A stretch of DNA of 64,000 nt from Chloroflexia bacterium. GTDB lineage: Bacteria > Chloroflexota > Chloroflexia > QHBQ01 > JADMIH01. Where the stretch lies: assembly GCA_035274425.1 (NCBI GenBank), contig DATEOC010000017.1, positions 5,456-69,455 of the forward strand, in the 5' to 3' direction. The translations under genes and the position numbers were made by a program. Positions 33,375 to 48,480 of this stretch are shown in pieces. Each line of letters begins with the position of its first letter. The stretch's first letter is position 1. Under the pieces are notes generated by a model. The model saw nothing but the letters and a program-made list of their open reading frames with translations. It ran no database searches and was not told the DNA's origin.

Positions 33375-33459
33375 GCCGGAGTGGCGAAACGGCAGACGCA
33401 AGGCACTTAAAATGCCTCGAGCGCAAGCTCATGCGGGTTCGAGTCCCGCCTCCGGCACC
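33375..33459 (+). tRNA. tRNA-Leu (anticodon TAA), type II with long variable arm; attachment site of the downstream integrated element
   Basis: gccggag acceptor, anticodon loop ctTAAaa, long variable arm cgagcgcaagctcatgc, T-arm gggttcgagtccc. Resembles E. coli tRNA-Leu(UAA). Confidence 0.85.
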
Positions 33460-33546
33460 TATAAGAAAGATGTTCTGAAATCACGCACAAAAATGGAGGC
33501 TAAATAGCCTCCATTAGCTTTTTTATCACCATTTTATCACCGCGCA

Positions 33547-34689
33547 CTAAGAAATATCCTCCAACAGCTTATCTAATCGGCTTGCAGCTTCCTTCTGCAT
33601 ATCCATAGTGACATGACTGTAGCGGTTGAGGGTCATGCTCACATCCGAGTGCCCTAGTCGCTCTTGGACTATCTTGGGGTGTTCCCCGTTTGCAAGCATC
33701 AGGGTGGCACTGGTGTGTCGAAGGTCGTGAAATCTTAGCATTGGTAGTCCGGCCTCAGCTATCAGCCTTTTGAACCGGAGCATAAGCGAGTTAGGCAGTG
33801 TGGGCGTACCGAGTGCAGTGGCGAATACAAGCCCCTGGTCTACGTAGGCTGTGCCGATGGCAAGGCGAGCTTCAAGTTGCCGTATGCGGTGCTTGTGCAG
33901 AGCCTGCACGACTGAACGGGACAGAGCTATAGCGCGCTTCCCTGCTGCTGACTTTGGCTGGCTAAACTCGAAGCCCTTGCCCGCGCTCCTGATTAGCGCA
34001 CGCTTCACGGCCAGCACGCTCCGCTCGAAGTCTACATCTTCCCACTTCAGCCCTAAGATTTCGCCGCGTCTCATGCCAGTGAGCAGGGCGAGCCTCCACA
34101 GTGCTCCTAGCTCATCCTTATCAGACACAGCCAGGAAGGTGCTCACCTGGGTCTGGTTCCAGGTCACATAGTTCGGTGTAATCCGTCTAGGGCGATCTAC
34201 AGCCTCGGTGACGTTGCGGGTGAGCAGCCCCCACCGCACTGCTTGTTTCAGTGCTTTGTGAAGAATAGTGTGTATCTGGGCGACTGTGGTAGGGGATAAG
34301 CGTGCGACCTCCATCCTATCGGAGTAAAGGCGCTGCACATCGAGTGGTGCGAGCTTCGCCAGCTTGATACCGCCTATGAAGGGCATAACATGTTGGCGCA
34401 TAAGGTCTCCATAGCGTCGGTGGGTTGTAGCGCGGGTACTCTGCTTAGAAGACTCCAGCCACTTCTTGAGGTAATCAGTAACGGTGAGCTTCTTTGCATC
34501 TGCTTCTGCAAAGCCGCCCGCGCCGATGGACGCACGTAACTGCATTGCCTTATCCTCAACCTCACGCTTAGTGGCCGCGCTGAGTAGCTTCTGGCGGCGC
34601 TTGCCGGTTATTGGGTCGCGTGGTAGCTCTACGGTGAATTGCCACGTTATGCCCCTCGCACCTACTCTCTTCTCTGCTTTTCCGCTCAC
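33547..34689 (-). CDS. Tyrosine-type site-specific recombinase / integrase
   Basis: C-terminal catalytic region FHDLRHTSATLMLANGEHPKIVQERLGHSDVSMTLNRYSHV (R...HxxR...Y). An N-terminal SAM-like domain is present. The gene abuts tRNA-Leu. Confidence 0.85.
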   Translation of the reverse strand: MSGKAEKRVGARGITWQFTVELPRDPITGKRRQKLLSAATKREVEDKAMQLRASIGAGGFAEADAKKLTVTDYLKKWLESSKQSTRATTHRRYGDLMRQHVMPFIGGIKLAKLAPLDVQRLYSDRMEVARLSPTTVAQIHTILHKALKQAVRWGLLTRNVTEAVDRPRRITPNYVTWNQTQVSTFLAVSDKDELGALWRLALLTGMRRGEILGLKWEDVDFERSVLAVKRALIRSAGKGFEFSQPKSAAGKRAIALSRSVVQALHKHRIRQLEARLAIGTAYVDQGLVFATALGTPTLPNSLMLRFKRLIAEAGLPMLRFHDLRHTSATLMLANGEHPKIVQERLGHSDVSMTLNRYSHVTMDMQKEAASRLDKLLEDIS

Positions 34690-34982
34690 TTTCTTTCTCC
34701 TCTCGTCCTCTGCGCCCGCCTGAGTTTGTTGGCGGGTATCATTTTGGCTTCTTGCTCAATGCGTCTTGCTTTCAAGTACCTGTCTATCTCTGCGGCTTCT
34801 ACCCGCTTGTTGCGGCCTGTAGGTGGTATGCCTATTATCTTTATGCGGCCCGCTAATGCCTCTTTGCGGAGAGTGAACCTGCTGATTGAGAGTAGGCGGC
34901 ACGTTTCCTTGATGGTATAGGCCAGACGTGCGGGCGCTTCATCATTGGTAATCGCTGACTTCATTTTCTCTTCGTTATTCAT
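34686..34982 (-). CDS. Excisionase/AlpA-family helix-turn-helix DNA-binding protein
   Basis: AYTIKETCRLLSISRFTLRKEALAGRIK HTH. Its stop overlaps the integrase start (ATGA). Confidence 0.55.
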   Translation of the reverse strand: MNNEEKMKSAITNDEAPARLAYTIKETCRLLSISRFTLRKEALAGRIKIIGIPPTGRNKRVEAAEIDRYLKARRIEQEAKMIPANKLRRAQRTRGERK

Positions 34983-35293
34983 TTTCTACTCCATGCTGAT
35001 CCGCCTCGTGACCTTGATACCAAACTAACATCTTTCAGACATGGCGGAGCCGTCGCGTCTCTTTGGGGTATTAGGGTATCCTGTTCATATGCTCGGCCAG
35101 CCATACACCCGCGTCAACTTCGTCTGCCACACCTATGGCTTCAAAAGTCGCTATCACTTTGTCAGTGTCCTCGGCGCGATCATAGCTTGTGAGCAGTTCC
35201 CTTGTGTAGTGCCAGGGAGTAGGGCCACGTCTGCGCCCGTAGCGCGTTTTCTTCCCTATCGTTGCCATCAGCGCAATAGGGTCTAGCAGTTCC

Positions 35294-35677
35294 CTAAGCT
35301 GCATGATAACCGCCTCTATTCTGCTGGGGTCGTAACGCATCCAGCACCTCCCATGATATTGATAGCTTCCACGTTCTGTGCTTGCTTCTATGGCAACTCT
35401 TGCACAGCGTTGTAAGATTGTATAACCGATTATCACCCCCCTTACAAAGTGGTACTCTGTGGTGAACTTCAAGTTTGCAGTCAGTCTCATGGCAATCCTG
35501 ACATGTATCGTTATCGCGCAGCAGAGCAGCTTCCCGCACAAAACGCCAACCCGCCCCTCTTGCGCTTCGGCGGCATCTGGTTGAGCAGAAGCCGTGCTGC
35601 GCATTCTTTGGCACGAATGTGTTAGTACATCCTTCCTTAGCACACGTGATAACGACTGTCTTTGTGGGTGTTGCCAT
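35294..35677 (-). CDS. HNH endonuclease (zinc-finger N-terminus + HNH core)
   Basis: CxxxGC...CSTRC N-terminal Cys cluster, then HNH core DCKLEVHHRVPLCKGGDNRLYNLTTLCKSCH. Confidence 0.7.
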   Translation of the reverse strand: MATPTKTVVITCAKEGCTNTFVPKNAQHGFCSTRCRRSARGAGWRFVREAALLRDNDTCQDCHETDCKLEVHHRVPLCKGGDNRLYNLTTLCKSCHRSKHRTWKLSISWEVLDALRPQQNRGGYHAA

Positions 35678-35817
35678 GTGTGTACCTCCTACCTATCTGT
35701 TACTATTCTATCAGAAATGCAGTCAAAATGCAAGGCTCATATGTTCTGAAATTGCAAATTGACTGCAACTCGTTTAGAATTAGTTTGATGGTAGAGAAGT
35801 AGTTAGGCATCGCGGAG

Positions 35818-36057
35818 GTGACAAGGAAAGTTATGGCAGTAATGACATTGAAAACACATAGAGAGAGAGCATTTCTAACCACAAGAGAGCTAGCTGATAA
35901 GGCAGGGGTCACAACCTCAACACTTTGGCGAATTGAGAAGCGCCTACATAAACCACACATTAGCACGATGCGCCGGATCGCTGAGGTGCTGGGCGTCCAC
36001 CCAACGGAGGTAGAAGAATTCGCGGTACGTCGAGAGAGAGACGACTCTGCTAAGTGA
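35818..36057 (+). CDS. XRE-family helix-turn-helix transcriptional regulator
   Basis: LTTRELADKAGVTTSTLWRIEKRLHKPHISTMRRIAEVLGV, an HTH_XRE pattern. Confidence 0.7.
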   Translation: MTRKVMAVMTLKTHRERAFLTTRELADKAGVTTSTLWRIEKRLHKPHISTMRRIAEVLGVHPTEVEEFAVRRERDDSAK

Positions 36058-36491
36058 AGTGTCACATTTATGGCATTTCATGCTGAACGTGATATTTCAC
36101 GATAGTATGTGCATCGGCCTCTACCCCCCCCCCATTTTGGTGCGCGACTTTTTGGGTTCGGCCTCTAAGCCACCCGGACAATTGCAGTATTTCTGCTGCC
36201 TAAACATAGTGGGCTATCATGGCTGGTGGGTGCTTTAGAGCAATAAGAATGAAGTAAAATTATCGGGTGAATATCTGCCGCCACTATTAAGGTATCAGCC
36301 GCCACAAATTAGGTATCTATAGGGCAATGAAGCTAAGGGAGTAGCGGGCCTTGTTGCTGCTTACTACCCTCGGAGTTGAACCTGTGTACGTGCGTGTAGG
36401 CAGTGAGTGTGGGATAACGGGGTAATATGGCGTCACGCACAAGCCGCCTATTGTTGGGTTATGTAAGTTACGGTAATAGGCTGTGACTAAA

Positions 36492-36923
36492 CTAATCACG
36501 CCATTCGGTACTGCCTCGGCAGGGGATACCCTTGCACGTCAAGCATTGTTGGCCGGAGCGCCCACAGCGTAATCCTTTCCGCCAATCTATAGCATTGAGC
36601 CACTCTTGAAGTTCCCGCACCTCTTGGAGTGGAGGCTTGCCGCCTGGCAGTGTGGCCTTCGTCTCGTAGGCTTTCGCTATTGCCGCTTCGTCAATCTCTC
36701 GTAGAAAGCTAGGCCGCGCCTCTGCTTGGACTGCCCCATGCGGGGATAGGTAAATCATAAGCTCGGCCTTGTGCTCCTGTATCTGCTTCGCCAGCGCGGG
36801 AGTCATGGCGCTCTTCGGACCAGTCACTTTCAACCCACCATCCTCGACACTTACCGACAGACCCGCAGTTCTAAGCCCGTCAAGCACTGCGCTTAGAGTG
36901 TCGTCAGTCCTCAGAATGTCCAT
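36492..36923 (-). CDS. Hypothetical protein of the island, translationally coupled to the upstream Prim-Pol gene
   Basis: 143-aa ORF whose start overlaps the Prim-Pol stop by 13 nt. No motif recognised. Confidence 0.45.
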   Translation of the reverse strand: MDILRTDDTLSAVLDGLRTAGLSVSVEDGGLKVTGPKSAMTPALAKQIQEHKAELMIYLSPHGAVQAEARPSFLREIDEAAIAKAYETKATLPGGKPPLQEVRELQEWLNAIDWRKGLRCGRSGQQCLTCKGIPCRGSTEWRD

Positions 36924-39631
36924 GTTTCGATAACCTCCTCTCCTGGGACCATTTTAGAATGACCCTGGATTTCGTCGTCATTGCCGTCATTCAGGCGTAA
37001 GGCATCGTCATTGCGGCCTATTTCACTGTCACCCTTTTGGATAACAGCGTCACTAACAGCATCGCTTTCGGGCGTGGGTATGACGGTAATGACGGGCGTG
37101 ACGCTGTTTTGCACCTTCATTCTAAGAGAGATAGGACGCTTAGTACCGCTCCTATTCAAGAACTGAACATTCAAGCCAAGTTGCCGCAAATTGGGAGCGA
37201 TACGTCGTAAGCAGCCGGAGAGGTCGTTTGGTCGTTTGGGCCAGCCATCCGGTGTTCGGGCATTCTCGCCGTGATTCGCAAAGGAGTTCAACGCGGCCAA
37301 TAACTCGCTTGCAGAACCTACCCACTCGCCGCCGATAACCCCCGATACAAACTCCTGAAGTTTAGCCGCGATAGGTTCCGCCTCCAGTGCGAGGGTATTC
37401 GCTTCGGCGCGGTTGCCAGTGTAAGCTAGCATGAATGCACCTGCTCTTAGCCCCAATGCAGGCTCGGCAGCAGTGACCCACATCGCGAAGTCTGCCATGC
37501 GAGGTTTGCGTTTCAAGCGTACATTAGGGAGGTTCTTGATCGCCATGCACACAGCATCGAGCAGCACACCCAAGATGCGAGGTCGCACCGCCTCAAAGTT
37601 TGCCCATAAGCGACTCTCTTCCATACGTGCATCATCGGGTATTGGTTGAAGCAGCAGGATTACGCCTCGGTCCAACAGGTCGGGACGAGTTATCACATCC
37701 GTTATAGATGTGAGCATTACGGGACGCTGGGCCTCAAAGATAGTCTCTTCCGTACCTGAGTAAAGCTCACGGGTGGCGTAACCGCCGCCAGTGGAGAGCC
37801 TACAAAGTGCATCTGAGAGCCAGGCGGACATGTGCGAGAGATTATCAAATGTGGGCATCCATGCATTAGTAGCGGCAAGAATGAGGTCTTGTCCATTTCT
37901 AGGCTCTGCTCGTAGAGGTGTCTTGTTGGGGTCAACCAAACTGCGTATGATACGCGCCAACGTGCTTTTCGCAGTCCCTTGCTCACCACTTATTGCAGCC
38001 AGGGGATATGGGCCTTCTGGCTTGAATGCACCAATCAAAACCCCCAGGAAAAGTACCCATCCTTCTTCATTTGCGAAGTTCACGAAAGGCCGCAAGTCTT
38101 CTATGCTGCCGCCGCGTTCTGGAATGGGAAGATGTAGCATCCCTTTCGGGCGCTTGAAGCGCACCGGCGCGGCATCACCGTGTATGACTTGCCATCCGTC
38201 AGCCCGCAGTTCTACCACCTTCCAATCTTTTTGTGCCAGGTCCAGATAGATAATATCTCCATCGCGTGCTAATCTGACGTAAACCTCGCGCTCCTTACCT
38301 TGATAGGTTGCTTCACCTTCGAGTGAAATAATTGCATCTTGTAAGGCTTGAGCTCCTGGTACGCGCCCCGTCTCGTTATAGAAGCGTTGGGAGAGCCATG
38401 CCTTGAAAGCCCTCTCCCTGATAGGCCACGTCTCTTTATGCTCCTCTGTGGGAAGTGTTGCAAACGCCTCCTTTTCGGGTGTGTGCCAAAGCTCCACCCC
38501 TTCTACATGGACAAGCTCAACCAGGGTGCTTGATTGCGTCTTCGTCACAGCCGCAGGCGCATTGCTACTCTCTGCTGGTTCGTCTTCGCTGCCATTGGAT
38601 GTAGGGCACTCTTCCGTGCTCTTACCGTATATTGGTCCGCCATAACCCCGTTTGTTCAACTCTGAGGCTGCTGCTGCGAAATCCCCCTTATGCTTAAGTT
38701 TCGTATAGACGCTGAACTTACTATAGCCGCGCTCCGGCTCGAACTCTGTTGATGTAGTGAAGGCGTAGAAAAGGTCAGAGCCTTTATAGTTGATGCTGGC
38801 GCTGATACCCTCGCGCTTGCCTGGCCGTCTTAGATACGTGATTCCTCCCGACTCATAGACGCGCTGCCAACCTTCGGTATACAAGCCTGTATCTTCCCAT
38901 GAGGCAAGGCGATTGAAGGCGTCACCGGGGCGCGCAACGCCGTTCCCATCTGCACCTGCATTCTGCTTGCCGCTACTTTGTTCATGCGCCTCTTCCCTCG
39001 GCATCTGGTCGAATGAGCGGGCCAATTCCCACAGTAACTCTTGCTCTTCCGGTGTGATGACTACTAACGTTGAGATGCCGCCCTGTAAGAGTTCATATGG
39101 TCGCCCAGAAGGGTGTACCTTACCACCCGAAGGCGCTACTATCATGTACCCACCCTCGCCCCGCGTTTCAATTAGCACTTGAATCTTATCGCTTGGGTGC
39201 TTCATCTCATCGGGCTGCTTAGGTCGCCTTGCCAGCTTGGTATTACCTAGTGCGTTGGAGCATCTGTAAAGCCAATGGATACCGCCGCCAGGGGTACGCT
39301 CTAAGTATCCATCCTCAATCTTCCCAATCAAGCCTCCCAGGCCGACCTCAAGCGCCAATTGCTTATACTGCCCATAAGCCTGATAGTCATCGAACTCAAG
39401 CAACGTGAGGCCACCACTCACCAGTCCGCCTATGAAGCCCACCCCACATCGCCCATCAGCATACCATTCAAGTACCTTATCGCGTGGTGGCCGGGCCGAC
39501 TGGTACTGTTTCCATTCACCCTCCGGCTGCTTGGAACCATCCTCTAGAGGCGGCACGATACAAATGCCTGCTTTGTATGCCTCTTTGACGGTTGCCTGGA
39601 TCGCCTGAATAGTAGGAGTTGCGGCGCTCAT
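36911..39631 (-). CDS. Replication protein: N-terminal bifunctional DNA primase-polymerase (Prim-Pol) domain fused to a P-loop NTPase (D5/P4-type helicase-like) domain
   Basis: Prim-Pol-like N-terminus (GICIVPPLEDGSKQP...GVGFIGG...LLEFDD...IETRGEGGYMIVAPS). Walker A GEQGTAKST. Start set at MSAATPT (39631), which has GGGGGA about 10 nt upstream. The ORF track begins 31 codons earlier. Confidence 0.7.
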   Translation of the reverse strand: MSAATPTIQAIQATVKEAYKAGICIVPPLEDGSKQPEGEWKQYQSARPPRDKVLEWYADGRCGVGFIGGLVSGGLTLLEFDDYQAYGQYKQLALEVGLGGLIGKIEDGYLERTPGGGIHWLYRCSNALGNTKLARRPKQPDEMKHPSDKIQVLIETRGEGGYMIVAPSGGKVHPSGRPYELLQGGISTLVVITPEEQELLWELARSFDQMPREEAHEQSSGKQNAGADGNGVARPGDAFNRLASWEDTGLYTEGWQRVYESGGITYLRRPGKREGISASINYKGSDLFYAFTTSTEFEPERGYSKFSVYTKLKHKGDFAAAASELNKRGYGGPIYGKSTEECPTSNGSEDEPAESSNAPAAVTKTQSSTLVELVHVEGVELWHTPEKEAFATLPTEEHKETWPIRERAFKAWLSQRFYNETGRVPGAQALQDAIISLEGEATYQGKEREVYVRLARDGDIIYLDLAQKDWKVVELRADGWQVIHGDAAPVRFKRPKGMLHLPIPERGGSIEDLRPFVNFANEEGWVLFLGVLIGAFKPEGPYPLAAISGEQGTAKSTLARIIRSLVDPNKTPLRAEPRNGQDLILAATNAWMPTFDNLSHMSAWLSDALCRLSTGGGYATRELYSGTEETIFEAQRPVMLTSITDVITRPDLLDRGVILLLQPIPDDARMEESRLWANFEAVRPRILGVLLDAVCMAIKNLPNVRLKRKPRMADFAMWVTAAEPALGLRAGAFMLAYTGNRAEANTLALEAEPIAAKLQEFVSGVIGGEWVGSASELLAALNSFANHGENARTPDGWPKRPNDLSGCLRRIAPNLRQLGLNVQFLNRSGTKRPISLRMKVQNSVTPVITVIPTPESDAVSDAVIQKGDSEIGRNDDALRLNDGNDDEIQGHSKMVPGEEVIETWTF

Positions 39632-39713
39632 AGACACAAATCCCCCAACTCGCCTTTGCACTGCGCCTGGCCCCAAATAGCTCCCTTGCATCTGTTGTTG
39701 GTGCTGTATGACA

Positions 39714-40034
39714 TTAGCGCGCACCCCCTACTTCCCACTTCGAGGCGGTCTCAGGATGTTCAACCTGCGAAACCACCGCACTTTGTTCTGCAAGCCCTGC
39801 CAGTAATGTAGGTGTGTGAAATCTCAATAGTTTGCCGAGCCGCACTTGACCTGGTAGGCCTCCGTTAGTGCGGGCAAGCTCATACATCTTAGACCTGCCT
39901 ACGTGCAATAGGTTCGCAGCCTCAGTTGCGTCTATGAATAACGGCAATTCTTCTACACTACCGTTGCGCAATGTTCTCATTGTCTGTACCTCCAATCTCT
40001 TTAGTCTTTGCCTGCACACCCTGGTTATTACCAT
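39714..40034 (-). CDS. Excisionase-family HTH DNA-binding protein
   Basis: LFIDATEAANLLHVGRSKMYELARTNGGLPGQVRLGKLLRF, an HTH_17-like pattern. Confidence 0.5.
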   Translation of the reverse strand: MVITRVCRQRLKRLEVQTMRTLRNGSVEELPLFIDATEAANLLHVGRSKMYELARTNGGLPGQVRLGKLLRFHTPTLLAGLAEQSAVVSQVEHPETASKWEVGGAR

Positions 40035-40179
40035 CAGTTAACAGCCCGCGTCGCATGGCCTCCAAGCGTAGAAGGAAGCGTAACTGCTCTTCTGGATGAC
40101 GGCACTCCCTATCTGCCATTTCGATTAGGGCTTCCATCTCCGTTAGGTCTAGCGGGACTTTGACCCTTTGAATTTCCAT
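39958..40179 (-). CDS. Small ribbon-helix-helix-like (CopG/antitoxin-type) protein, tentative
   Basis: KVPLDLTEMEALIEMADRE resembles an RHH beta-strand + helix. It overlaps the downstream HTH ORF out of frame. Confidence 0.3.
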   Translation of the reverse strand: MEIQRVKVPLDLTEMEALIEMADRECRHPEEQLRFLLRLEAMRRGLLTDGNNQGVQAKTKEIGGTDNENIAQR

Positions 40180-40305
40180 AGTTACACCTCCACAAATAAA
40201 AAGCTGTACTCAGACTTGCGTCTCTGAATACAGCATAGAGGATATGAATTTCGGCGGGAAGCGTTACGTCGGTTTCGTCGGTTTCGGCGGTCTTAATGAC
40301 ATGGC

Positions 40306-41163
40306 TTAGCCACTTTCGTCTCCCTCGATAGGCTCTTTTGCAGCCCTGCGGTCCATCGCCTTATTGAATATATCCTTTAAATCTCCCGGCCTTCGACGCC
40401 TAAACCTTGCATCTCCCTCCTTTTCTCTAAGAGCAAGCTTCCACCATTCAAACACCTTGTCGTAACTTATACCTCTCCGCCAACGCTTGTATGCCTCGTC
40501 ATGGACTAGCTTTGGTGGGGCACCAGGAATTCCTGGCGGAAATACAACGGTTGATTCTTGCTCTCCTGCAACATCCACTGTGTTGTGCTTGCCTGCAACC
40601 TGTGACATATGCGCTTCCACAACTGGTGTGGCAGGCTCGTCCGGCGTTTGCTCGCCCCAACGCCCGCGCATTATTTTACACAGTGACATGAAGGCATTAA
40701 CCGCAGATGGGCGGCAGCACCTAGCATCTATTTCAATACTATATTCACTTGACTCAATATCCATGTCTGGAGTTCGGATTCTGAACTCAATGAGCGGTAT
40801 AGGAACAAGCCAGGCCTTACGTGCCCGCTCAAATTCGGCATCGGGGAATGAGGTAGGGTCTCGTCTGCCGGTAAGCATGAGCAACCAAGTATCAGAAGCT
40901 ATCTCGGTTAGCGGAGGCACTTCCGTGTTGAAAGAGAAACCACTATTCTTTGTGGTCATATATACCAGAGGCATATTCTCCAGCCAGTATTTTATATGGC
41001 TCACGGTTGTGTACAAGGTAAAGTTCTCGACTTGGTGGCGCGTCCACTTCTCATAGGCCTCCGGCCCCACCCACTCCCTTTCCCATTTCTCGACCTTTTC
41101 AAATTCTTGGCCATCCATAATACCTACCTCAAAGTGAAAACCCGTACCTGATTGTGGGGGCAA
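40306..41163 (-). CDS. Hypothetical island protein (285 aa), no recognisable domains
   Basis: Intact ORF in AT-richer island DNA. Trp-rich, charged. No motif matches. Confidence 0.4.
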   Translation of the reverse strand: MPPQSGTGFHFEVGIMDGQEFEKVEKWEREWVGPEAYEKWTRHQVENFTLYTTVSHIKYWLENMPLVYMTTKNSGFSFNTEVPPLTEIASDTWLLMLTGRRDPTSFPDAEFERARKAWLVPIPLIEFRIRTPDMDIESSEYSIEIDARCCRPSAVNAFMSLCKIMRGRWGEQTPDEPATPVVEAHMSQVAGKHNTVDVAGEQESTVVFPPGIPGAPPKLVHDEAYKRWRRGISYDKVFEWWKLALREKEGDARFRRRRPGDLKDIFNKAMDRRAAKEPIEGDESG

Positions 41164-41362
41164 TCAAGCACGGGCTTCCTTGCTGGCATTATACTCTTTC
41201 TCGTGGTTGTAGATGCCCCCACACCGCAAATCACTGACCTTATTGTACCACTTAGTATGGTTGTGGAAGGGTTCTCGCCTCAGACTGTGCAATTCATACA
41301 GGCATCTATGATATGGGCCACCCTGGTATCGCCTCGTCTATCGCCTCCATAAGCCTCATTGT

Positions 41363-41572
41363 CTATTGCAGAGGAGCAAGCACGCGACTGTTGTGGTAGA
41401 GATCGTCAAACGTCAGTGTGCGGACCTTGCGGTCTTTCAGCCACTTTTCTGCTACATGGTAGCCGCCGATGTGGAAGTCCCACACCTGTGGTGACACGTC
41501 CTCGAAGTATTGCGTCTTGTTGATAGGGATATGGACCGGCTGATTACCTTGTGGCGATATGTACGACCTCAT
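41363..41572 (-). pseudogene. Remnant encoding only the C-terminal ~70 aa of a type IIG/IIL (MmeI-like) restriction-modification or BREX PglX-type methyltransferase
   Basis: VWDFHIGGYHVAEKWLKDRKVRTLTFDDLYH matches the conserved C-terminal motif (VW.F.IGGYQV..KWLK.R) of the MmeI/PglX family. There is an in-frame stop immediately upstream, so the rest of the gene is absent. Confidence 0.5.
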
Positions 41573-41878
41573 CGAAGCTGTCTCTTACCCACCGCGCCTG
41601 CACATCTACCCTGACCACATCCGACTTGGATCTATCGGCTAGAACGGCCAAATGTCGGCGAAAGATCGTAGTCGGCATGCGATATGGTAAGCCCTATCGA
41701 GGGAAATACCCGAATCTGTGGCAATTGTTGCCTCGTTTGTGTAGACGTGTCCACTCCGGAACCATCACAAGCAGGTTACATCTGTTGAGCACGCTGCGAG
41801 CATTGACAATTAGCGCGAACTAGTGTAACATCCACGCGGTTTACCTCGAAACTCGCCTCAAATAGCTTATTTGGATTT

Positions 41879-42106
41879 TTGACTATTGTGGGAACAACAA
41901 AAACTCGACAGGTGCTGGGTGCCCAGATGAAGCGCTATCGTAGATTATTGCGACTTTCCCAACAAGACCTGTCCAAACTGTCTGGCCTTAATCGAAGCTA
42001 TCTGGGAAGCGTTGAACGTGGTGAGCGTAATATTGGGATAGATAACCTAGAGGAAGTTGCTAAAGCACTAGGAATTGAAGCCTGGCAACTTCTGCGCGAG
42101 GAATGA
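41879..42106 (+). CDS. Controller (C) protein of a restriction-modification system (XRE-type HTH)
   Basis: RSYLGSVERGERNIGIDNLEEVAKALGIEAWQLL closely follows the C-protein pattern (R.YIS.VERG.RN.SL..L.KIA.AL). A TTGTgggaACAA palindrome lies within the first 50 nt, so the true start may be the downstream MKRYRR (41927). Confidence 0.6.
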   Translation: MTIVGTTKTRQVLGAQMKRYRRLLRLSQQDLSKLSGLNRSYLGSVERGERNIGIDNLEEVAKALGIEAWQLLREE

Positions 42107-42115
42107 TCCCCACAT

Positions 42116-43378
42116 CTATAGGTCCGGTTTTCGCAGTACAAGTATTCCATCCTTCTTGCCTGCTCCATTTCCATGATAGTCGGCGCGGGCAGTGTATGCA
42201 TATTTTCCGACGCCAAAATGAGTTGTTCGATAAATTATCTGCGTAAGTTCAAAACCAATACTAATCGCTATCTCAGAACACATCGCCAGTACAGGCACTA
42301 GCTCTCCGTGGATTGTAGCATCACCTAGAACAACACAGCAGTAACAGCCGGGTTGGAGCACAGTGAGCGCCTGCAAAAGCATTTGGCGCTGGTTGTCGAA
42401 GTACGATTGGTATATCTCCTTCTTTGTGGCTGGCCAAGCACGAATTTCTAAGCTACGAAGTGTTTCCAAGTCATATTGTCCCCAGAGTTCGGGGAAACCC
42501 TTTGCCCATTGAAACTCAAGGTTATAAGCCGGAAAGTAATCAAAGGAATTAAGATAAGGTGGATGTGCGATTATCAAACCTATCGGCTCTTCCTTCGTGA
42601 CAGGTAGCCGGGACAATTCGCGATTGTCTGCTAGCTCGGCCACCGCTGACACATTAGTACGCGTGCGCAAATTCCATTCCATCTCCCGGTCTATCATCTC
42701 TCGTACCTTCTTAGCATAAGCCTTCCATACAGGACGTGGCCTTTTGTCCTTATTTATGTGAGGTCGGATTTCACCGTCATAGGCATTGGATACACGACGA
42801 ATGATAGCAAAATACGCTAGTGTAAAGAACTCACGATATTCGTCTTCCTGGAGTTGAAGAATGCATGATTTGAGTATAGCAAGACTGTTTCTTGATAACT
42901 CACTGAACCATTTGTCAACGCTAGGCGTGTTTGGAAGATATTGTTTAGCAATATCGAGGGATGCGTTGTACGTATATTTTGACCTATTTGTTATCAGATC
43001 CTCGCTGCTTAGTAGCAATGAGTAATGTTCTTCCAGCAACGCACTTAAGTCTTGCCAGCGCCTATTTAGCTCAACTACCGAGTAGTTACGGCACTTTACG
43101 CGACATGCAAGAATAGCAAAAGGATTAACATCTACACCAATCGAGTTATAACCGGCTAGTTTAGCTTCAACCAGTGTTGTACCTGACCCGGCATAGTTGT
43201 CGAGTATGGTCATATTGGGGCGAGCGAATTCATCAATGAGTTTCTTCGCTACTAGAGAAGGGAACTTACCGTAGTACCTGAAGAAGTTGTGAGTGAGGTA
43301 GGCAAGCTCTGAAATTGACTCCGAGATGTCCCAAGTTTGCGTGGGTACATTAGCAACCTCGTCAAATAGCGTAGGCAT
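42116..43378 (-). CDS. DNA methyltransferase (N6-adenine/N4-cytosine amino-MTase family), motif I before motif IV
   Basis: Motif I ILDNYAGSGTTLVEA (FxGxG). Motif IV LIIAHPPY ((D/N/S)PPY-like) ~200 aa downstream. AT-richer than the host. Confidence 0.7.
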   Translation of the reverse strand: MPTLFDEVANVPTQTWDISESISELAYLTHNFFRYYGKFPSLVAKKLIDEFARPNMTILDNYAGSGTTLVEAKLAGYNSIGVDVNPFAILACRVKCRNYSVVELNRRWQDLSALLEEHYSLLLSSEDLITNRSKYTYNASLDIAKQYLPNTPSVDKWFSELSRNSLAILKSCILQLQEDEYREFFTLAYFAIIRRVSNAYDGEIRPHINKDKRPRPVWKAYAKKVREMIDREMEWNLRTRTNVSAVAELADNRELSRLPVTKEEPIGLIIAHPPYLNSFDYFPAYNLEFQWAKGFPELWGQYDLETLRSLEIRAWPATKKEIYQSYFDNQRQMLLQALTVLQPGCYCCVVLGDATIHGELVPVLAMCSEIAISIGFELTQIIYRTTHFGVGKYAYTARADYHGNGAGKKDGILVLRKPDL

Positions 43379-43496
43379 GATTGCTCCTTATAAGTATCAG
43401 CTTCATATTGAGTTCATCATACCTAATCTGTGGGGACGAGTCAACAGTTATGCACATCAATCATAAGTACTGCGATCTACACAAGGAGGCTATTCG

Positions 43497-44543
43497 ATGG
43501 ACTACACTGAGGGGGACATAGAGACGGAGGCACTTCCTGGGCAAAGAACAACACAGGAGGGCATCTCGAAAATATTCTACTTTTTTGAGCGCTACACAAC
43601 ATTATCTAGTGGCCGCACAATCGGTCGGAAAATCGGTGTGGTCCAGGAGATTGTAGTTCGTAGCTATTTGTTACAGTATGGACGTTTGGCTGATGCTGTG
43701 ATCTTCGAGCCGCAACTTCCTGGTTACTCTGGAGCAACCCACAAAGTAGAGTTCGTGTTTTGTCAGCCGATCAAAGTAGTAGAATTTGGTCTAGGATGTT
43801 CTAGTCCAATTGGATCCTGCCAATTTACGCTGTTGTCGATAGATACGGAAAAGATGCGGGCGACATTCTCAGTAACGAACGGAGAAAGAGAACAAAAAGC
43901 AACCTTGATACCCTTTCAAGTGCTGGATAGCGCAAAAGGGAATAAGGGTAAAGGTGTACTCTCATTCGGAGCAACTGTCAAGATAAGCACTCTCACCGAT
44001 GATCGGGTCAGGCTTGTCGTTCTTGACCGCGCAGACGTAAGAGCGTCCGTTGAGAGCAAACGGGTTGGAGCACAGCGTTTTTCTGGCTCTGATAAGCTCG
44101 GTGCAGGTATTCAGACTATCGAAAAGGCAAAGCAAGCTTCTTTGGTGGCCATTGATGCCGACCTCCTGTTTAATGGACAGCTAAAAGTACTTTCAGTACC
44201 TGGGGCAACTAGGCGCTACATTTCTGTGGTTGTTCTAGGTAACGGTGTTCACTGGACCGAGAAAGACTTGAGCGTGCTAAAGACTTATGTAGACTTTACA
44301 TTCCTAATTCCTGACGACTCTATCATTCGGTACGCGGAACATGTACTCCAACTCGCAACAGAAGCTGGCCACCCCTTCATTGATTTCTTTCAATCGTATT
44401 TTGAGGGAATGACCAAAGCGGTTCCCGATGGATTTACTGTAGGCGAGGGGGACTTTCAGGTTCTAAGGCCGGAAACAGAGACGCGAACACTGTCGGATAT
44501 TCTCGATTCGCAACTGGACACTTACCCAATAGTTGAAGCATAG
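43497..44543 (+). CDS. Candidate restriction endonuclease partner of the adjacent methyltransferase (hypothetical protein)
   Basis: Inference from position: divergent from the MTase, next to a C gene, in lower-GC DNA. No nuclease motif recognised; type II REases are rarely recognisable by eye. Confidence 0.35.
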   Translation: MDYTEGDIETEALPGQRTTQEGISKIFYFFERYTTLSSGRTIGRKIGVVQEIVVRSYLLQYGRLADAVIFEPQLPGYSGATHKVEFVFCQPIKVVEFGLGCSSPIGSCQFTLLSIDTEKMRATFSVTNGEREQKATLIPFQVLDSAKGNKGKGVLSFGATVKISTLTDDRVRLVVLDRADVRASVESKRVGAQRFSGSDKLGAGIQTIEKAKQASLVAIDADLLFNGQLKVLSVPGATRRYISVVVLGNGVHWTEKDLSVLKTYVDFTFLIPDDSIIRYAEHVLQLATEAGHPFIDFFQSYFEGMTKAVPDGFTVGEGDFQVLRPETETRTLSDILDSQLDTYPIVEA

Positions 44544-44775
44544 CAATAAGCTCAAAATAGAGATGAACCGTAGTGTTGACAGCAGCCCTTCAACGCATAA
44601 GGTAGGCATATCTTCTTAGTCACAAATTTATCACACCATATGCATAATCAACCCATCTCAACGATCACCAAGTAACATAGTAGGCAAATCCACAGGCACA
44701 AACCCCACTACTCATCTATCCCCAACCATCACCACTCTCTCGAATCTCGCCTTCGGCACAAATATAAAGTCTTCT

Positions 44776-47700
44776 CTAATAAGCAGATAGAAGTTTGACT
44801 TCATCTGCAATCACGACCGGGTGCATCTTCAAAGCTATAGTATCGCTGTGCCTCAGATCATCAGGTGGCTGCACTCCTACCCCGCGACCCTTCCCGCTTA
44901 CTTGGACACGTCCCGTAATTATGAAGGGACCGTGCCCACCGTTGACTAACACTTTCCCATTGCCCTGGTAGGCATCGGAAAATAGCACCACCTCTATAAG
45001 TCCGTCTCGGTCCTGTATGGATAGGAAGAGCATCCACTTGCCATCTTTACCCCTATGCCTGCGACCTGCCACCGCAATTCCTGCCACCTTCACATTATGG
45101 TCTGCATATCGGTGTAGCTCGCTCGATGGAATAGCGCCCGGCACTTCCAGCCACTCCATCTCATTGTGACTCAAGGTAAACCCTAACGCCTCTTGCTCCA
45201 ACTTCAGTTTTTCGGTTGGTGTATAGTCATCCAACTGTGGCACGTCAATGTGTAGCGTATTCCTGCCTAATATCTTAGGGTTGCCAATGCCCCCACCTGC
45301 ACCACGATCTGCACTAGGATGAATGAAGTCCCCACCTATAGCTATTTGCAACCCCATGCCTTTGCCATCCGAGCCTGTAGCGAATAGTCTATCTGCGATT
45401 GACTGGCGACTTGTACTCCTCACTGTAAGGCTACGTGTTGACAGGAGAGCTGGCAAGAGCCTCATCATCTGCTTGCGGTTTAGGTCCATTATAGGCTCAT
45501 ATACAGCCTCTATCGTTTCGCCCATGCTTCCACGTATTGACGCAATCGAGGGTATGCTTGCATCTCCTCCCAGGTTATCGCAAGCTCCCACCTTCACCAG
45601 TGCTGTTATCTCCTGCGGACCCATTTCTACCCTCGCCATCAAATCAAGTAGAGAGTGAAACCGCCCGCCGTTGCGCCGCTCATTGAGTATAGCCGCTACC
45701 GTCTTCTCTGATAGACCTTTCACGAACTGCAAGCCGAAGCGGATGCTACGCTGTTCGCCTGAGCCTGTAGGCACTTCGCACCATGAGCCACTTTCGTTTA
45801 CGTGGGGCACAAGTAGCTTTATGCGTAAGCGTCGAGCGTCTTCGACGTAGACGGATGGCCCATAATAACCCCCGCCGTTGTTGATTTGCGCGGCCAGGAA
45901 CATAGCCGGGTAGTGCGCCTTCATATAGGCCGAACGGTAGGCAGTAAGGGCGTAGGAGTGAGCATGAGCCGCGCAGAAGCCGAAGCCCGTATAGCCCGCT
46001 ATTATCTCCCATACCTTCTGAGCCTGTAACTGGTCTATGCCCCGTTCTATCGCCCCCGCTACAAACTGACTTCCCATTTGGGTGCGCTCATCCGCCGAGC
46101 GCGTCTTGCCCAACGCTTTGCGTAGCTTCTCAGCTTCGCCCAGGTTCAGCCCTGCCAGCTTATGCACCAGTTTTAGGAACTGCTCCTGGAACAGTATCAC
46201 TCCTTTAGTGTTCCTCAGTATCTCCTCCATAGAAGGGTGCAGGTAGCTTATCTCCTCTTGCCCTACGTGCCGCCGCACGAAGGCTTCCAGAAAGCCTCCC
46301 TCTAATGGCCCCGGCCTGAATAGAGAAATCGCCACCGCTACATCGTCCAGGTTGCGTGGTCTGAGCCACTTCAATAATCCGCGCATACCCGGACTCTCCA
46401 ACTGGAAGCAGCCGAGGGTATCCCCTTCGGCCATCATGCGATAGGTGCGCTCATCATCTATTGGGATAGCTTGCAGCCATTTTTCTAGTTCACCACCCTT
46501 ACCACCCTTACCACCTTTGCCAGTTGCCATACCTGATGCTTGCACAGCATCCACCAGCGTTGTAAGCGCCCGGCTGCCGAGTATATCCATCTTTACCAGG
46601 CCCAGCACCTCTATGGCATCTTTGTCGTATTGGGTGATAGCCATTGAGGGGTCGCGTGCTGCCCTTTGCAAAGGAACCAGATTAGCCAAAGGGTCGGGCG
46701 TTATGACCACCGCAGCGCAGTGCATACCAGCGTGGCGGGGCAAGCCTTCGATAGCGTGCGCCAGGGCAAAGGCGGTGCGCTCATTGTCATCTCGCAGCTT
46801 TGGAGTCGGGGCGGTATCATTCTCCTCATCATGGGCATCGGATAATGCCTCATATTCCAGCGCCTCTTCCATAGCCTCTATATCACCTGAGCCATCTGGA
46901 TCGCCTGTGCTATCTGAGTCATCTCCATAATCGAAAGCATGGGGAAGGCGGTTAGCCATATAGCTGATGCGGTCTGCCCTTACACCCATGACTTTAGCCA
47001 TCTCTCGCCACGCCGAGCGCAAACGAAATGTGATATGAGTGCCCACCGTCGCCACATGGTCGCGTCCATAACGCTCATATATGTAGTGCAATACCTGGTC
47101 TCGCCCGCGCCAGCACACATCGAGGTCTATGTCCGGCATCTCAAACTCTGCACGTGCAGGGTTCAAGAACCGCTCAAAGAGGAGGTCTTTCTGAATAGGG
47201 TCTACCTGGGTAATACCAAGCACGTATGCCACCAGGCTGTTAGCGGCGGAACCACGCGCCATGATGGGGATGTCTTTCGATTGGGCAAAACGCACTATGT
47301 CATATACGACAAGAAAGTAGGCAGAGAAGCCTAGCGCCTCTATAATCTCTAGCTCATGCTTCAGGCGGGCTAGAACCTGCTCAGTAAGAGGGCGATAACG
47401 GCTAGTGGCTCCGGCAAAACATAGCTTCCAAAGTTTGGAGAACGGGGTCTCACCACTCGGCAAATCCACGCCTGGAAAGAGAGGTTTGTAAAGAGGGAGT
47501 TCAAGATTGCACTGTTCGGCTATGAAGTGAGTATTGGCTATGGCCTGTGGGTAGTCAGCAAAGAGGTGGGCCATCTCATCCGCCGACTTGAAGTAGCGTT
47601 CGGTCCCTACTTCCTCTTGTAGAGCTGCATCGCCTCTTAGCTCACCTATAGCCTGCGTATGCGCACTGTATTTGCGCCTGATACCTTTGCGAGCAGAGGC

Positions 47701-48480
47701 TAGAGCACGGGCGGTAGCTGCATCTTTGTCGGCAAGGTAAAGCACATCGTTTGTCGCTACGATGGGCACTCCCATGTCATTCGCCAGACTGATCAGGGCG
47801 GGCAGAGTGGCAGCATCCTTATCGTCAAGCAACTGCAATTCGATAAAGACGTTCCCCTCGCCGAAGGCCGTTATGAGAGTGCCTATAGACCTTGCCGCTT
47901 GCTCCATCTTGCCTCGCCTGACCAGTGAATTGACAAGCCCATGCCGTCCACCAGATAAGGCTATCAGCCCTCTGGCATGGCGACCCGATAACAATAGCTC
48001 GCGGGGTAGAAGCGGCTCTTTTTGTAGTCGTAGCGAAGGCGAAGCTGCGAGCTTGGATTTCTTCGGCTTATCGGTAAAGCCGAACACTGGCACACCCCAC
48101 ACCCCATCCTCCCAAAATGGCGCTTCTTCCTCTTCATTATAGCCCGGTGGCTCTAAGGCTTGGGGGTCGGCGTTGAGTCGGAGGACGGTTGCCAACTGGC
48201 AGAGGTTGCGATAGCCGTCCATGTTCCGGGCCAATAGCACTAGACTTGATGATTGCACCTCGCCCGCTTCGTCAAGGTCAATCTCCATGCCCACTATCGG
48301 CTTGATACCTGATTTCTGAGCCTGGACATAGAAAGAGACTGCCCCATATAGGCTATTGTGGTCCGTGAGCGCCAGCGCGCTCATGCCTTGCTTTTTGGCT
48401 GTGCTGATGAGGTTCTGAGGCGTGGCCGTGCCTTCTAGGAGGGAGTAACCGGAATGGCAATGGAGATGCACAAACCCCAT
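44776..48480 (-). CDS. dnaE: DNA polymerase III alpha subunit family protein (DnaE/DnaE2-like) with unusual acidic/low-complexity insertions
   Basis: N-terminal PHP domain HLHCHSGYSLLEG...ALTDHNSLYG. Fingers/palm blocks (GSAANSLVAYVLGIT, PDIDLDV, FGFCAAHAHSYA). C-terminal OB-fold. Insertions include DDSDSTGDPDGSGDIEAMEEALEYEALSDAHDEEND and GKGGKGGKGG. Confidence 0.8.
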   Translation of the reverse strand: MGFVHLHCHSGYSLLEGTATPQNLISTAKKQGMSALALTDHNSLYGAVSFYVQAQKSGIKPIVGMEIDLDEAGEVQSSSLVLLARNMDGYRNLCQLATVLRLNADPQALEPPGYNEEEEAPFWEDGVWGVPVFGFTDKPKKSKLAASPSLRLQKEPLLPRELLLSGRHARGLIALSGGRHGLVNSLVRRGKMEQAARSIGTLITAFGEGNVFIELQLLDDKDAATLPALISLANDMGVPIVATNDVLYLADKDAATARALASARKGIRRKYSAHTQAIGELRGDAALQEEVGTERYFKSADEMAHLFADYPQAIANTHFIAEQCNLELPLYKPLFPGVDLPSGETPFSKLWKLCFAGATSRYRPLTEQVLARLKHELEIIEALGFSAYFLVVYDIVRFAQSKDIPIMARGSAANSLVAYVLGITQVDPIQKDLLFERFLNPARAEFEMPDIDLDVCWRGRDQVLHYIYERYGRDHVATVGTHITFRLRSAWREMAKVMGVRADRISYMANRLPHAFDYGDDSDSTGDPDGSGDIEAMEEALEYEALSDAHDEENDTAPTPKLRDDNERTAFALAHAIEGLPRHAGMHCAAVVITPDPLANLVPLQRAARDPSMAITQYDKDAIEVLGLVKMDILGSRALTTLVDAVQASGMATGKGGKGGKGGELEKWLQAIPIDDERTYRMMAEGDTLGCFQLESPGMRGLLKWLRPRNLDDVAVAISLFRPGPLEGGFLEAFVRRHVGQEEISYLHPSMEEILRNTKGVILFQEQFLKLVHKLAGLNLGEAEKLRKALGKTRSADERTQMGSQFVAGAIERGIDQLQAQKVWEIIAGYTGFGFCAAHAHSYALTAYRSAYMKAHYPAMFLAAQINNGGGYYGPSVYVEDARRLRIKLLVPHVNESGSWCEVPTGSGEQRSIRFGLQFVKGLSEKTVAAILNERRNGGRFHSLLDLMARVEMGPQEITALVKVGACDNLGGDASIPSIASIRGSMGETIEAVYEPIMDLNRKQMMRLLPALLSTRSLTVRSTSRQSIADRLFATGSDGKGMGLQIAIGGDFIHPSADRGAGGGIGNPKILGRNTLHIDVPQLDDYTPTEKLKLEQEALGFTLSHNEMEWLEVPGAIPSSELHRYADHNVKVAGIAVAGRRHRGKDGKWMLFLSIQDRDGLIEVVLFSDAYQGNGKVLVNGGHGPFIITGRVQVSGKGRGVGVQPPDDLRHSDTIALKMHPVVIADEVKLLSAY

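Follow-up and report, generated by a model that had tools for sequence, protein, structure and literature searches.

The DNA that we analysed, a 64,000-nucleotide stretch of contig DATEOC010000017.1 from a Chloroflexia bacterium (referred to below as the window), probably carries at positions 41879-44543 an intact, horizontally acquired Type IIP restriction-modification (R-M) cassette of the BspHI family, which lies on an integrase-bearing island beside a tRNA-Leu gene and in which a small controller protein (C) appears to repress the methyltransferase gene (M). Three genes make up the cassette:

41879-42106, plus strand: C gene, 75 amino acids (aa), TTG start
42116-43378, minus strand: M gene, 420 aa
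43497-44543, plus strand: R gene, 348 aa, the restriction endonuclease

The stop codons of the convergent genes C and M are separated by 9 nt, and M and R are divergent across a gap of 118 bp. A sequence-only reading of the same DNA had proposed a C-protein-associated Type II R-M system with a 348-aa endonuclease, a neighboring R-M remnant, and an AT-richer island, and this central proposal was borne out; its coordinates for C, M, R, and a 69-aa fragment were exact when compared with the list of open reading frames (ORFs).

The link to BspHI is most direct for M. A tblastn search of plasmids with M found one record only, that of pBspH1, a plasmid of Acinetobacter sp. NEB 394, the strain formerly named Bacillus sp. 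H and since reclassified (PMC8259958). On this plasmid, M (411 aa) is convergent with a C-like helix-turn-helix (HTH) gene, which is followed by a 381-aa "hypothetical protein." The plasmid M and the 381-aa protein matched the PADLOC MTase_II and REase_II models end to end (773 and 895 bits) and are the exact sequences of the UniRef entries 'M.BspHI' and 'BspHI', from Bacillus sp. H. The window M and M.BspHI were 41% identical by BLASTP (residues 1-417 versus 16-411; E, 3e-105), and the window C was 31% identical to the C protein of the BspHI system. These comparisons place the locus in the BspHI R-M family, as a remote member. As a side observation, the cluster at 90% identity to which M.BspHI (411 aa) belongs has a 236-aa TlyA rRNA methyltransferase as its representative and consists mostly of such proteins, which looks like a clustering artifact in the protein collection and not biology.

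M matched PADLOC model MTase_II PDLC03239 over its full length (4.8e-85; 284 bits) and Pfam N6_N4_Mtase with residues 12-87 (1.5e-16; profile positions 140-214 of 221). Motif I, DNYAGSGTT, occupies residues 60-68 (AGSGTT, 63-68), and motif IV, AHPPY, occupies residues 271-275 (HPPY, 272-275); the measured spacing of 209 aa agrees with the roughly 200 aa read from the sequence earlier. This order is the reverse of that in the beta class (motif IV, target-recognition domain, motif I; PF01555), represented by M.RsrI, M.MboIIA, and M.PvuII. The motif I region aligned with the C-terminal part of the beta-class structures M.RsrI, M.MboIIA, and 2zie, with residues 38-91 placed on residues 219-273 of the 297-aa chain 2zie, and residues 320-356 aligned with 2zie residues 66-102, an alignment that is not significant alone (0.9 bits; i-Evalue, 1.5e+03). 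As judged from its motif order, M is a circularly permuted relative of the beta-class N6/N4 amino-methyltransferases, as is M.BspHI. HPPY had been regarded as an atypical version of motif IV, a view that did not hold: it was found without exception in 30 of 30 homologues, and M.BspHI has it too, so that the variant marks the M.BspHI family. A literature search for "HPPY" returned only papers on the Hippo pathway. The window M retains all 66 residues that are invariant across the aligned homologues, and its putative target-recognition region (approximately residues 150-260) is among the best-conserved parts across 41-68% identity, with K156, W157, F158, R194, R195, S197, D201, E203, R205, P206, H207, and K212 invariant. 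As a full-length relative of the characterized DNA methyltransferase M.BspHI, M belongs neither to an orphan nor to an RNA methyltransferase family.

R is a PD-(D/E)XK-fold endonuclease and a distant relative of R.BspHI. Searches with the R sequence gave no match in PDB, Pfam, NCBIfam, or the plasmid collection (single-sequence tblastn); the PDB copy that was searched contains no structure of R.BspHI either. None of the 222 database relatives of R had a function assigned from any source or a Pfam domain. Proteins identical to the window R and M are recorded from a metagenome-assembled genome labeled "Chloroflexia bacterium." PADLOC model REase_II PDLC03437 matched R at 1.3e-14 and covered only residues 203-284. 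When a profile of the R family was compared with R.BspHI, HHalign aligned the two at 98.9% (E, 3.7e-17; 26% identity over 249 columns), with the common blocks GRKxG...E, SGAxHKVEF, and GxQTxEKAKQASxVAxD. The family alignment placed the invariant residues at E51, H82-K83-x-E85, E186-S-K188, E209-K210, and D220, and we can only infer which of them form the active site; the window R keeps all 49 residues that are invariant across the aligned homologues. A DNA methyltransferase gene adjoins the R homologue in all 40 related loci examined, and together with the restriction-endonuclease fold and the homology to R.BspHI this upholds the choice of the 348-aa protein as the candidate endonuclease. A perfect 15-nt direct repeat, CGGGTTGGAGCACAG, is present at 42349-42363 inside M, antisense to the M mRNA, and at 44061-44075 inside R, where it encodes an invariant KRVGAQ; about 0.001 such matches would be expected by chance. 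The M and R mRNAs would therefore be complementary over 15 nt. As a site of pairing between the two mRNAs, the repeat was rejected, since it was not conserved in six other loci.

Cleavage of T^CATGA by BspHI is prevented when either adenine is methylated (PMC5778455). To assess site avoidance, counts of the 64 palindromic hexamers in the M and R cassettes of 28 related, non-redundant loci (63 kb in all) were set against those expected from a maximal-order Markov model. TCATGA was the most depleted of them, with 3 sites observed versus 15.4 expected (Poisson P = 1.5e-4), and all three were in M promoters, with none in coding sequence. Because TCATGA is the most avoided palindrome in these cassettes, the window system is probably a BspHI isoschizomer. 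We consider it reasonably probable that the cassette recognizes TCATGA, and M is probably an N6-adenine methyltransferase for this sequence. The alternative that the palindrome itself (CTTATAAG or TTATAA) is the recognition site was rejected in favor of TCATGA on the basis of BspHI homology and site avoidance. Cassettes with a gene order other than that of the window (written here as C> <M R>) showed significant depletion of TCATGA, with 0 sites versus 10.1 expected. Within the window, no TCATGA was found from 33363 to 54151 (20.8 kb covering the island, dnaE, and flank), where the Markov model predicted 4.7, and the remaining part had 8 versus 10 expected.

In six loci TCATGA is found at the M promoter. 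In the 7.8 kb of pBspH1 (L037) that was examined, the only TCATGA, at 3915, overlaps the extended -10 element of the M.BspHI promoter; in L032 (1730), L033 (1605), and L036 (2533) the site lies at -10/+1 of the M promoter, and in L028 (6414) and L030 (4230) it lies just upstream of M. At this position L007, L008, L035, and L161 carry TCACGA, and the M promoter of the window carries neither TCACGA nor TCATGA. The presence of TCATGA on or next to the M -10 element in BspHI itself and in several relatives suggests methylation-sensing or site-linked control of M. Separately, in L002 (4388-4981), L005 (4321-4947), L003, L006, and L018, which are metagenome-assembled genomes (MAGs) of Candidatus Lernaella and Nitrospirales, the R family is paired with an adenine methyltransferase of approximately 200 aa (PF05869, 'Dam') encoded directly upstream. 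This is a swap of methyltransferase partner, and the pairing with an adenine methyltransferase fits an enzyme that is sensitive to adenine methylation.

Several observations weigh against TCATGA as the recognition sequence of this particular cassette. R is only approximately 26% identical to R.BspHI, the middle of the protein is highly variable within the family (residues ~90-175, about 90 residues), and K188 of the ESK motif is unmatched in R.BspHI, so that the specificity could differ. When only the C> <M R> subgroup is considered, TCATGA falls outside the top five depleted palindromes and its depletion is not significant; the absence of the site from the window cassette carries no weight, since only about 0.6 sites would be expected there; and the M promoter of the window lacks the TCATGA that is replaced by TCACGA in four relatives. 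These points would be explained if the family were a scaffold with several specificities and the window system, although related to BspHI, recognized another sequence. We regard this as possible but doubtful, because the putative target-recognition region of M is strongly conserved, with many invariant residues, and because the coding sequences of the subgroup contain no TCATGA versus about 5 expected, just as the island and flank contain none in 20.8 kb. TCATGA remains the specificity that we favor.

The 75-aa protein belongs to the controller-protein family, as had been suggested. It matched Pfam HTH_3 (6.9e-13) and four PADLOC Control_protein models (E < 1e-11; best, 1.7e-17), and its top sequence matches in PDB were C.AhdI (9e-11) and C.BclI (2.8e-10). 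Orthologues with 53-68% identity occupy the same position in L007, L008, L032, L033, and L034, and a further copy was found in L161. The recognition-helix region, LSGLNRSYLGSVERGERN in the window, is nearly invariant across the C loci (L-x-G-L-x-R-(S/A)-Y-(I/L)-G-(G/S)-(V/I)-E-R-G-E-R-N) and is close to that of C.AhdI. The sequence elements that bear on the control of the three genes are the following:

41803-41831, plus strand: C promoter-like site TTGACA-N17-TAACAT, 10/12 consensus positions, joint best in 41300-44800, a consensus match only
41859-41873: inverted repeat CAAATAgctTATTTG with 6-bp arms, 5 nt before the TTG start of C
41879 (TTG) or 41888 (GTG), plus strand: start codon of C, either being possible
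43385-43396, M leader: 12-bp operator-like palindrome TACTTATAAG(G/T)A, candidate C-binding site
43416-43444, minus strand: M promoter TTGACT-N17-TATGAT, 10/12 consensus positions
43483-43489, plus strand: Shine-Dalgarno (SD) sequence of R, AAGGAGG, 7 nt before the ATG, read directly from the sequence

Of all sigma-70 matches in the region, those of the C and M promoters are the best. In L032, the closest relative, the C promoter has an equivalent (TTGACA-N17-TAGCAT), and a TTGAC and a TATAAT-like hexamer are found at the place of the M promoter in L007, L008, L032 to L036, and L161. C has no obvious SD sequence. A sigma-70 promoter scan gave no plus-strand site between M and R, and the only plausible -35 element of R is overlapped by the -35 element of M (43439-43444).

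The palindrome TTGTgggaACAA in the 5' region of C had been read as operator-like. It is present at 41886-41897, in codons 3-7 of the C gene; the operator role, however, was not supported. The window contains 255 inverted repeats with 4-bp arms separated by 4 nt (about 0.4 per 100 nt), which places this one at chance level, and the orthologous loci have no equivalent. The inverted repeat CAAATAgctTATTTG was not conserved in any C orthologue examined. A search for a shared motif in the 150 nt upstream and the first 30 coding nt of seven C genes gave a best 12-mer of 53/72, versus a shuffled maximum of 54. A classical 35-bp C-box centered on the GTG at 41888 or at 41823 was also rejected: by eye, neither has symmetric boxes or flanking complementary triplets, and the motif scan was at the null level. 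Upstream of C there was no C-box of two operators with a central GTG/TGTA, and C is not in an operon with R.

A different element stood out in the leader of M. On the M strand the palindrome reads TACTTATAAGGA (consensus, TACTTATAAGTA); it overlaps the M SD sequence, lies at approximately +14 to +25 from the predicted M transcription start, and is 1.3 kb from the C gene. In a 12-mer scan of the M-upstream regions it reached 67/72, versus a shuffled maximum of 54. The longer sequence GCTCCTTATAAGTA, which on the M strand reads TACTTATAAGGAGC, is the same letter for letter in the window and in six more sequenced loci (five of them independent) whose M proteins are only 60-68% identical, and it recurs in L161. 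The palindrome was present in all eight loci with this type of C and in none of three related loci without it: L159, where C is missing, and L160, where another type of HTH protein is encoded 386 nt away, both lack it, and it has decayed to TACTTTTTAGGA in L035, in which there is no C and M is split. On this evidence, the M-leader palindrome, and not TTGTgggaACAA, is likely the conserved operator-like element of the cassette. Of the findings that the sequence-only reading had named as contrary to it, none was obtained outright; a lack of C-box sites for the 75-aa protein was seen only in part, at the C gene itself, whereas the M promoter has a C-box-like candidate operator.

Other copies of the palindrome were not convincing. 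No copy was found upstream of the C genes at up to 3 mismatches, and at the same limit there was no convincing copy upstream of R. A weaker version, CAATCATAAGTA (43458-43469; 39 nt before R; 3 mismatches), has similar counterparts only in L032 and L036, and 10 such sequences were found window-wide versus 9.6 expected, for which reason it was set aside. The matches to TACTTATAAGGAGC in viral contigs, at least 120 in number, were likewise dismissed as chance matches, since none lies next to related genes.

The assignment of the palindrome to C has points against it. The palindrome overlaps the SD sequence in 7 of the 8 loci, so that translation signals could account for part of its conservation; related lineages contribute to the co-occurrence count of 8 versus 3, and the loci are not fully independent; and no C-box was found upstream of C or R, which leaves C autoregulation and C control of R, the classical hallmarks, unsupported. 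It would be compatible with these facts if the palindrome belonged to the M mRNA as an extended translation-initiation or leader element, or served another factor as its site, with C regulating something else or acting on itself through an unrecognized site. In support of this alternative, the right arm of the palindrome is the M SD sequence AAGGAG in those seven loci, no copy stands upstream of C or R, and the 14-mer TACTTATAAGGAGC, with its many viral matches far from related genes, is of a kind that is not rare. We nevertheless consider the alternative unlikely. The L036 copy is a perfect palindrome (TACTTATAAGTA), and the SD sequence there is a separate one 20 nt downstream, which indicates that the element is more than a ribosome-binding site; the conservation runs 6-8 nt past any SD sequence and stops sharply on both sides; close M relatives without this C (L159 and L160) have ordinary leaders, and in L035 the element has decayed; and a 12-nt palindrome without a loop could form no useful RNA hairpin. 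A C-binding operator in the M leader is the reading that we retain.

The gene order of the cassette had been described as atypical. It is unusual compared with the textbook C-R operon, but it is a conserved lineage trait and not a local rearrangement, because C> <M R> recurs in at least 7 independent loci from several phyla. The orders that were found in the family are the following:

C> <M R>, as in the window: L001/L007 (Blastocatellia), L008 (Acidobacteriota), L032, L033, L034, and L161
<M R> C> (M-R-C): L036
R> <M, many with an HTH fused to the M N terminus: L009 and others
C>R> <M or <C R> <M: gut Firmicutes, Bacteroides, and BspHI itself
Dam>R>: Candidatus Lernaella and Nitrospirales MAGs

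L001 and L007 are one contig and were counted as one independent locus. In all C> <M R> members, C and M either overlap at their 3' ends or leave a gap of 4-17 nt, and no terminator was predicted between C and M in the window. Methyltransferase versions of about 500 aa (P0197, P0209, P0217, and P0220; L009 and others) have an HTH_3 domain fused at the N terminus, and in L009, the sole such locus fetched, no separate C gene was detected. The HTH-methyltransferase fusion is a third regulatory solution within one family.

From this arrangement a sequence of events can be proposed. M would be expressed first, from its strong, near-consensus promoter, and C would be transcribed separately from its own promoter. 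A C dimer would then bind the single 12-bp palindrome in the M leader and turn M down to a maintenance level. R would be weakly expressed, having a good ribosome-binding site and no good promoter, and its expression may rise once RNA polymerase leaves the back-to-back M promoter. M would methylate an adenine in TCATGA, and R would cut unmethylated sites, which we infer with moderate confidence. More tentatively, and with the odds against it, the C> <M R> cassettes may form a distinct regulatory class in which C acts only via the M-leader palindrome: antisense transcription from M would hold C down, and C would then shut M off and so free both itself and R, giving a double-negative toggle by convergent transcription. 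No means of C autoregulation was found.

Immediately beside the cassette lies a defense gene that is clearly dead:

41312-41572, minus strand: Type ISP/IIG remnant; its ORF is 41363-41572 (69 aa, containing VWDFHIGGYHVAEKWLKDRK), and the homology runs through the stop codon to 41312

The remnant matched Pfam Type_ISP_C (5.6e-13; profile positions 279-325 of 342) and PADLOC REase_MTase_IIG (1.6e-16; positions 1004-1056 of 1096). In a tblastn search with a 1,101-aa type ISP enzyme from a Nostoc plasmid, residues 1020-1100 aligned to 41554->41312 with 51% identity (2e-19); the alignment passes the in-frame stop at 41363-41365 and includes 17 codons beyond it, and no other piece of the Nostoc enzyme was found by tblastn anywhere in the window. 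The 69-aa ORF is a dead 3' end, in which the last ~81 of ~1,100 residues survive. It had been called a fragment of an MmeI/PglX-family enzyme; it is indeed the C-terminal remnant of an R-M enzyme, but its best full-length relatives are annotated as type ISP and not specifically as MmeI/PglX. Compared with full Type ISP/IIG enzymes, it is a pseudogene remnant from which over 90% of the gene, with the nuclease, motor, and methyltransferase parts, has gone, and it is not a working partner of C, M, and R. The remnant is consistent with turnover or replacement of defense genes at this site, an idea that is reasonable and not proven.

The dead neighbor raises the question of whether the cassette itself still works. 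If M were an orphan methyltransferase beside a decaying endonuclease, or if the cassette had been silenced after transfer, the lack of a recognizable promoter for R would be accounted for, and there is a precedent for decay in the close relative L035 (2587-3847), where the methyltransferase is split into ORFs of 334 and 96 aa, no C gene is present, and the locus looks as if it is decaying. Against this, all three ORFs of the window are full length relative to their homologues, every one of the 49 invariant residues of R and the 66 of M is kept, and the promoters, SD sequences, and palindrome are intact. A nonfunctional locus is thus very improbable, and we continue to regard the cassette as intact.

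The features of the surrounding island that are relevant to its acquisition are the following:

33375-33459: tRNA-Leu(taa), at the start of the island
33547-34689: tyrosine integrase (Phage_integrase, 1.5e-27), adjoining tRNA-Leu

The island also carries two HTH_17 excisionase-like ORFs and a 937-aa primase-polymerase (Prim-Pol) protein, and its right edge abuts dnaE (44776-48480). A search near this edge for a direct repeat (attR) of the tRNA-Leu 3' end gave no match of at least 9 nt, which leaves the right boundary undefined. The G+C content was 46.9% for C, 45.3% for M, 47.3% for R, 50.6% for the 11-kb island (33460-44775), and 58.1% for the window outside the island, in agreement with the earlier statement that the cassette genes are AT-richer than the host. 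The DnaE (Pol III alpha) ORF has a short GKGGKGGKGG low-complexity insertion and an acidic DSDSTGDPDGSGD stretch, and its G+C content of 54% is below that of the surrounding host DNA.

These results assign a function to at least 222 "hypothetical" proteins without a Pfam or NCBIfam model, namely that of restriction endonucleases related to R.BspHI, and they predict a BspHI-type methylation mark (TCATGA, N6-methyladenine [m6A]) in an uncultured Chloroflexia bacterium. After Kpn2I, they also provide what appears to be a second case, and a phylogenetically widespread one, in which a C protein is uncoupled from R and acts only on M, with a candidate operator that is defined to the base pair. The cassette is ordinary in kind, the wiring of its small regulator gene is somewhat unusual, and the current understanding of R-M systems is not overturned.

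With BspHI, the window system shares the methyltransferase family, the permuted motif order, and the invariant S/A-HPPYLN motif IV; the endonucleases belong to the same family at the profile level, and both systems have a small C-type HTH gene. The two differ in layout, since BspHI has a C>R> operon convergent with M, whereas the window has a stand-alone C tail to tail with M and a divergent R. They also differ in the endonuclease, as the low identity noted above is accompanied in the window R by a different central region and an ESK motif that is not found in BspHI.

In the PvuII/AhdI type, C.AhdI and C.PvuII bind GACT-N3-AGTC boxes (PMC2647307), and the C-box has the form GACT-N3-AGTC TGTA GACT-N3-AGTC with TAT as the preferred spacer (PMC2647307, PMC2632904). 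The window is similar in its C sequence and recognition helix (xRSY...VERGxRN) and in its palindrome, TACT-TATA-AGTA, which has ACT/AGT arms and a TA-rich center and resembles a single operator, or half-site, of that C-box. However, it has one palindrome with a 4-nt instead of a 3-nt center, without a second operator or a GTG/TGTA spacer, and the site is not upstream of C, so that activation of R by C cannot be deduced from it. In Esp1396I, C regulates the M gene as well as R (PMC3488213), and the putative C control at the M promoter of the window is similar in this respect.

The regulatory layout has one studied analogue, Kpn2I, in which a stand-alone C represses a strong M promoter and R is expressed from a weak, C-independent promoter (PMC6237814). 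The mechanism in the window likely resembles it, as we propose here as well that C represses a strong M promoter and that R is independent of C, with no classical C-box before a C-R operon. The two systems differ in detail. The Kpn2I C and M genes are divergent neighbors, and a C-box inside the C coding region blocks the M -35 element and acts as a roadblock to C transcription, whereas in the window C and M converge, 9 nt separating their 3' ends, and 1.3 kb lie between C and the putative operator in the M leader. The controller proteins are also unlike: the window C is close to C.AhdI and C.BclI, and C.Kpn2I is a distant XRE-like protein. The toggle that we tentatively propose for the C> <M R> cassettes would be unlike both the activator-repressor C-box switch of PvuII, AhdI, and Esp1396I and the in-gene roadblock of Kpn2I.

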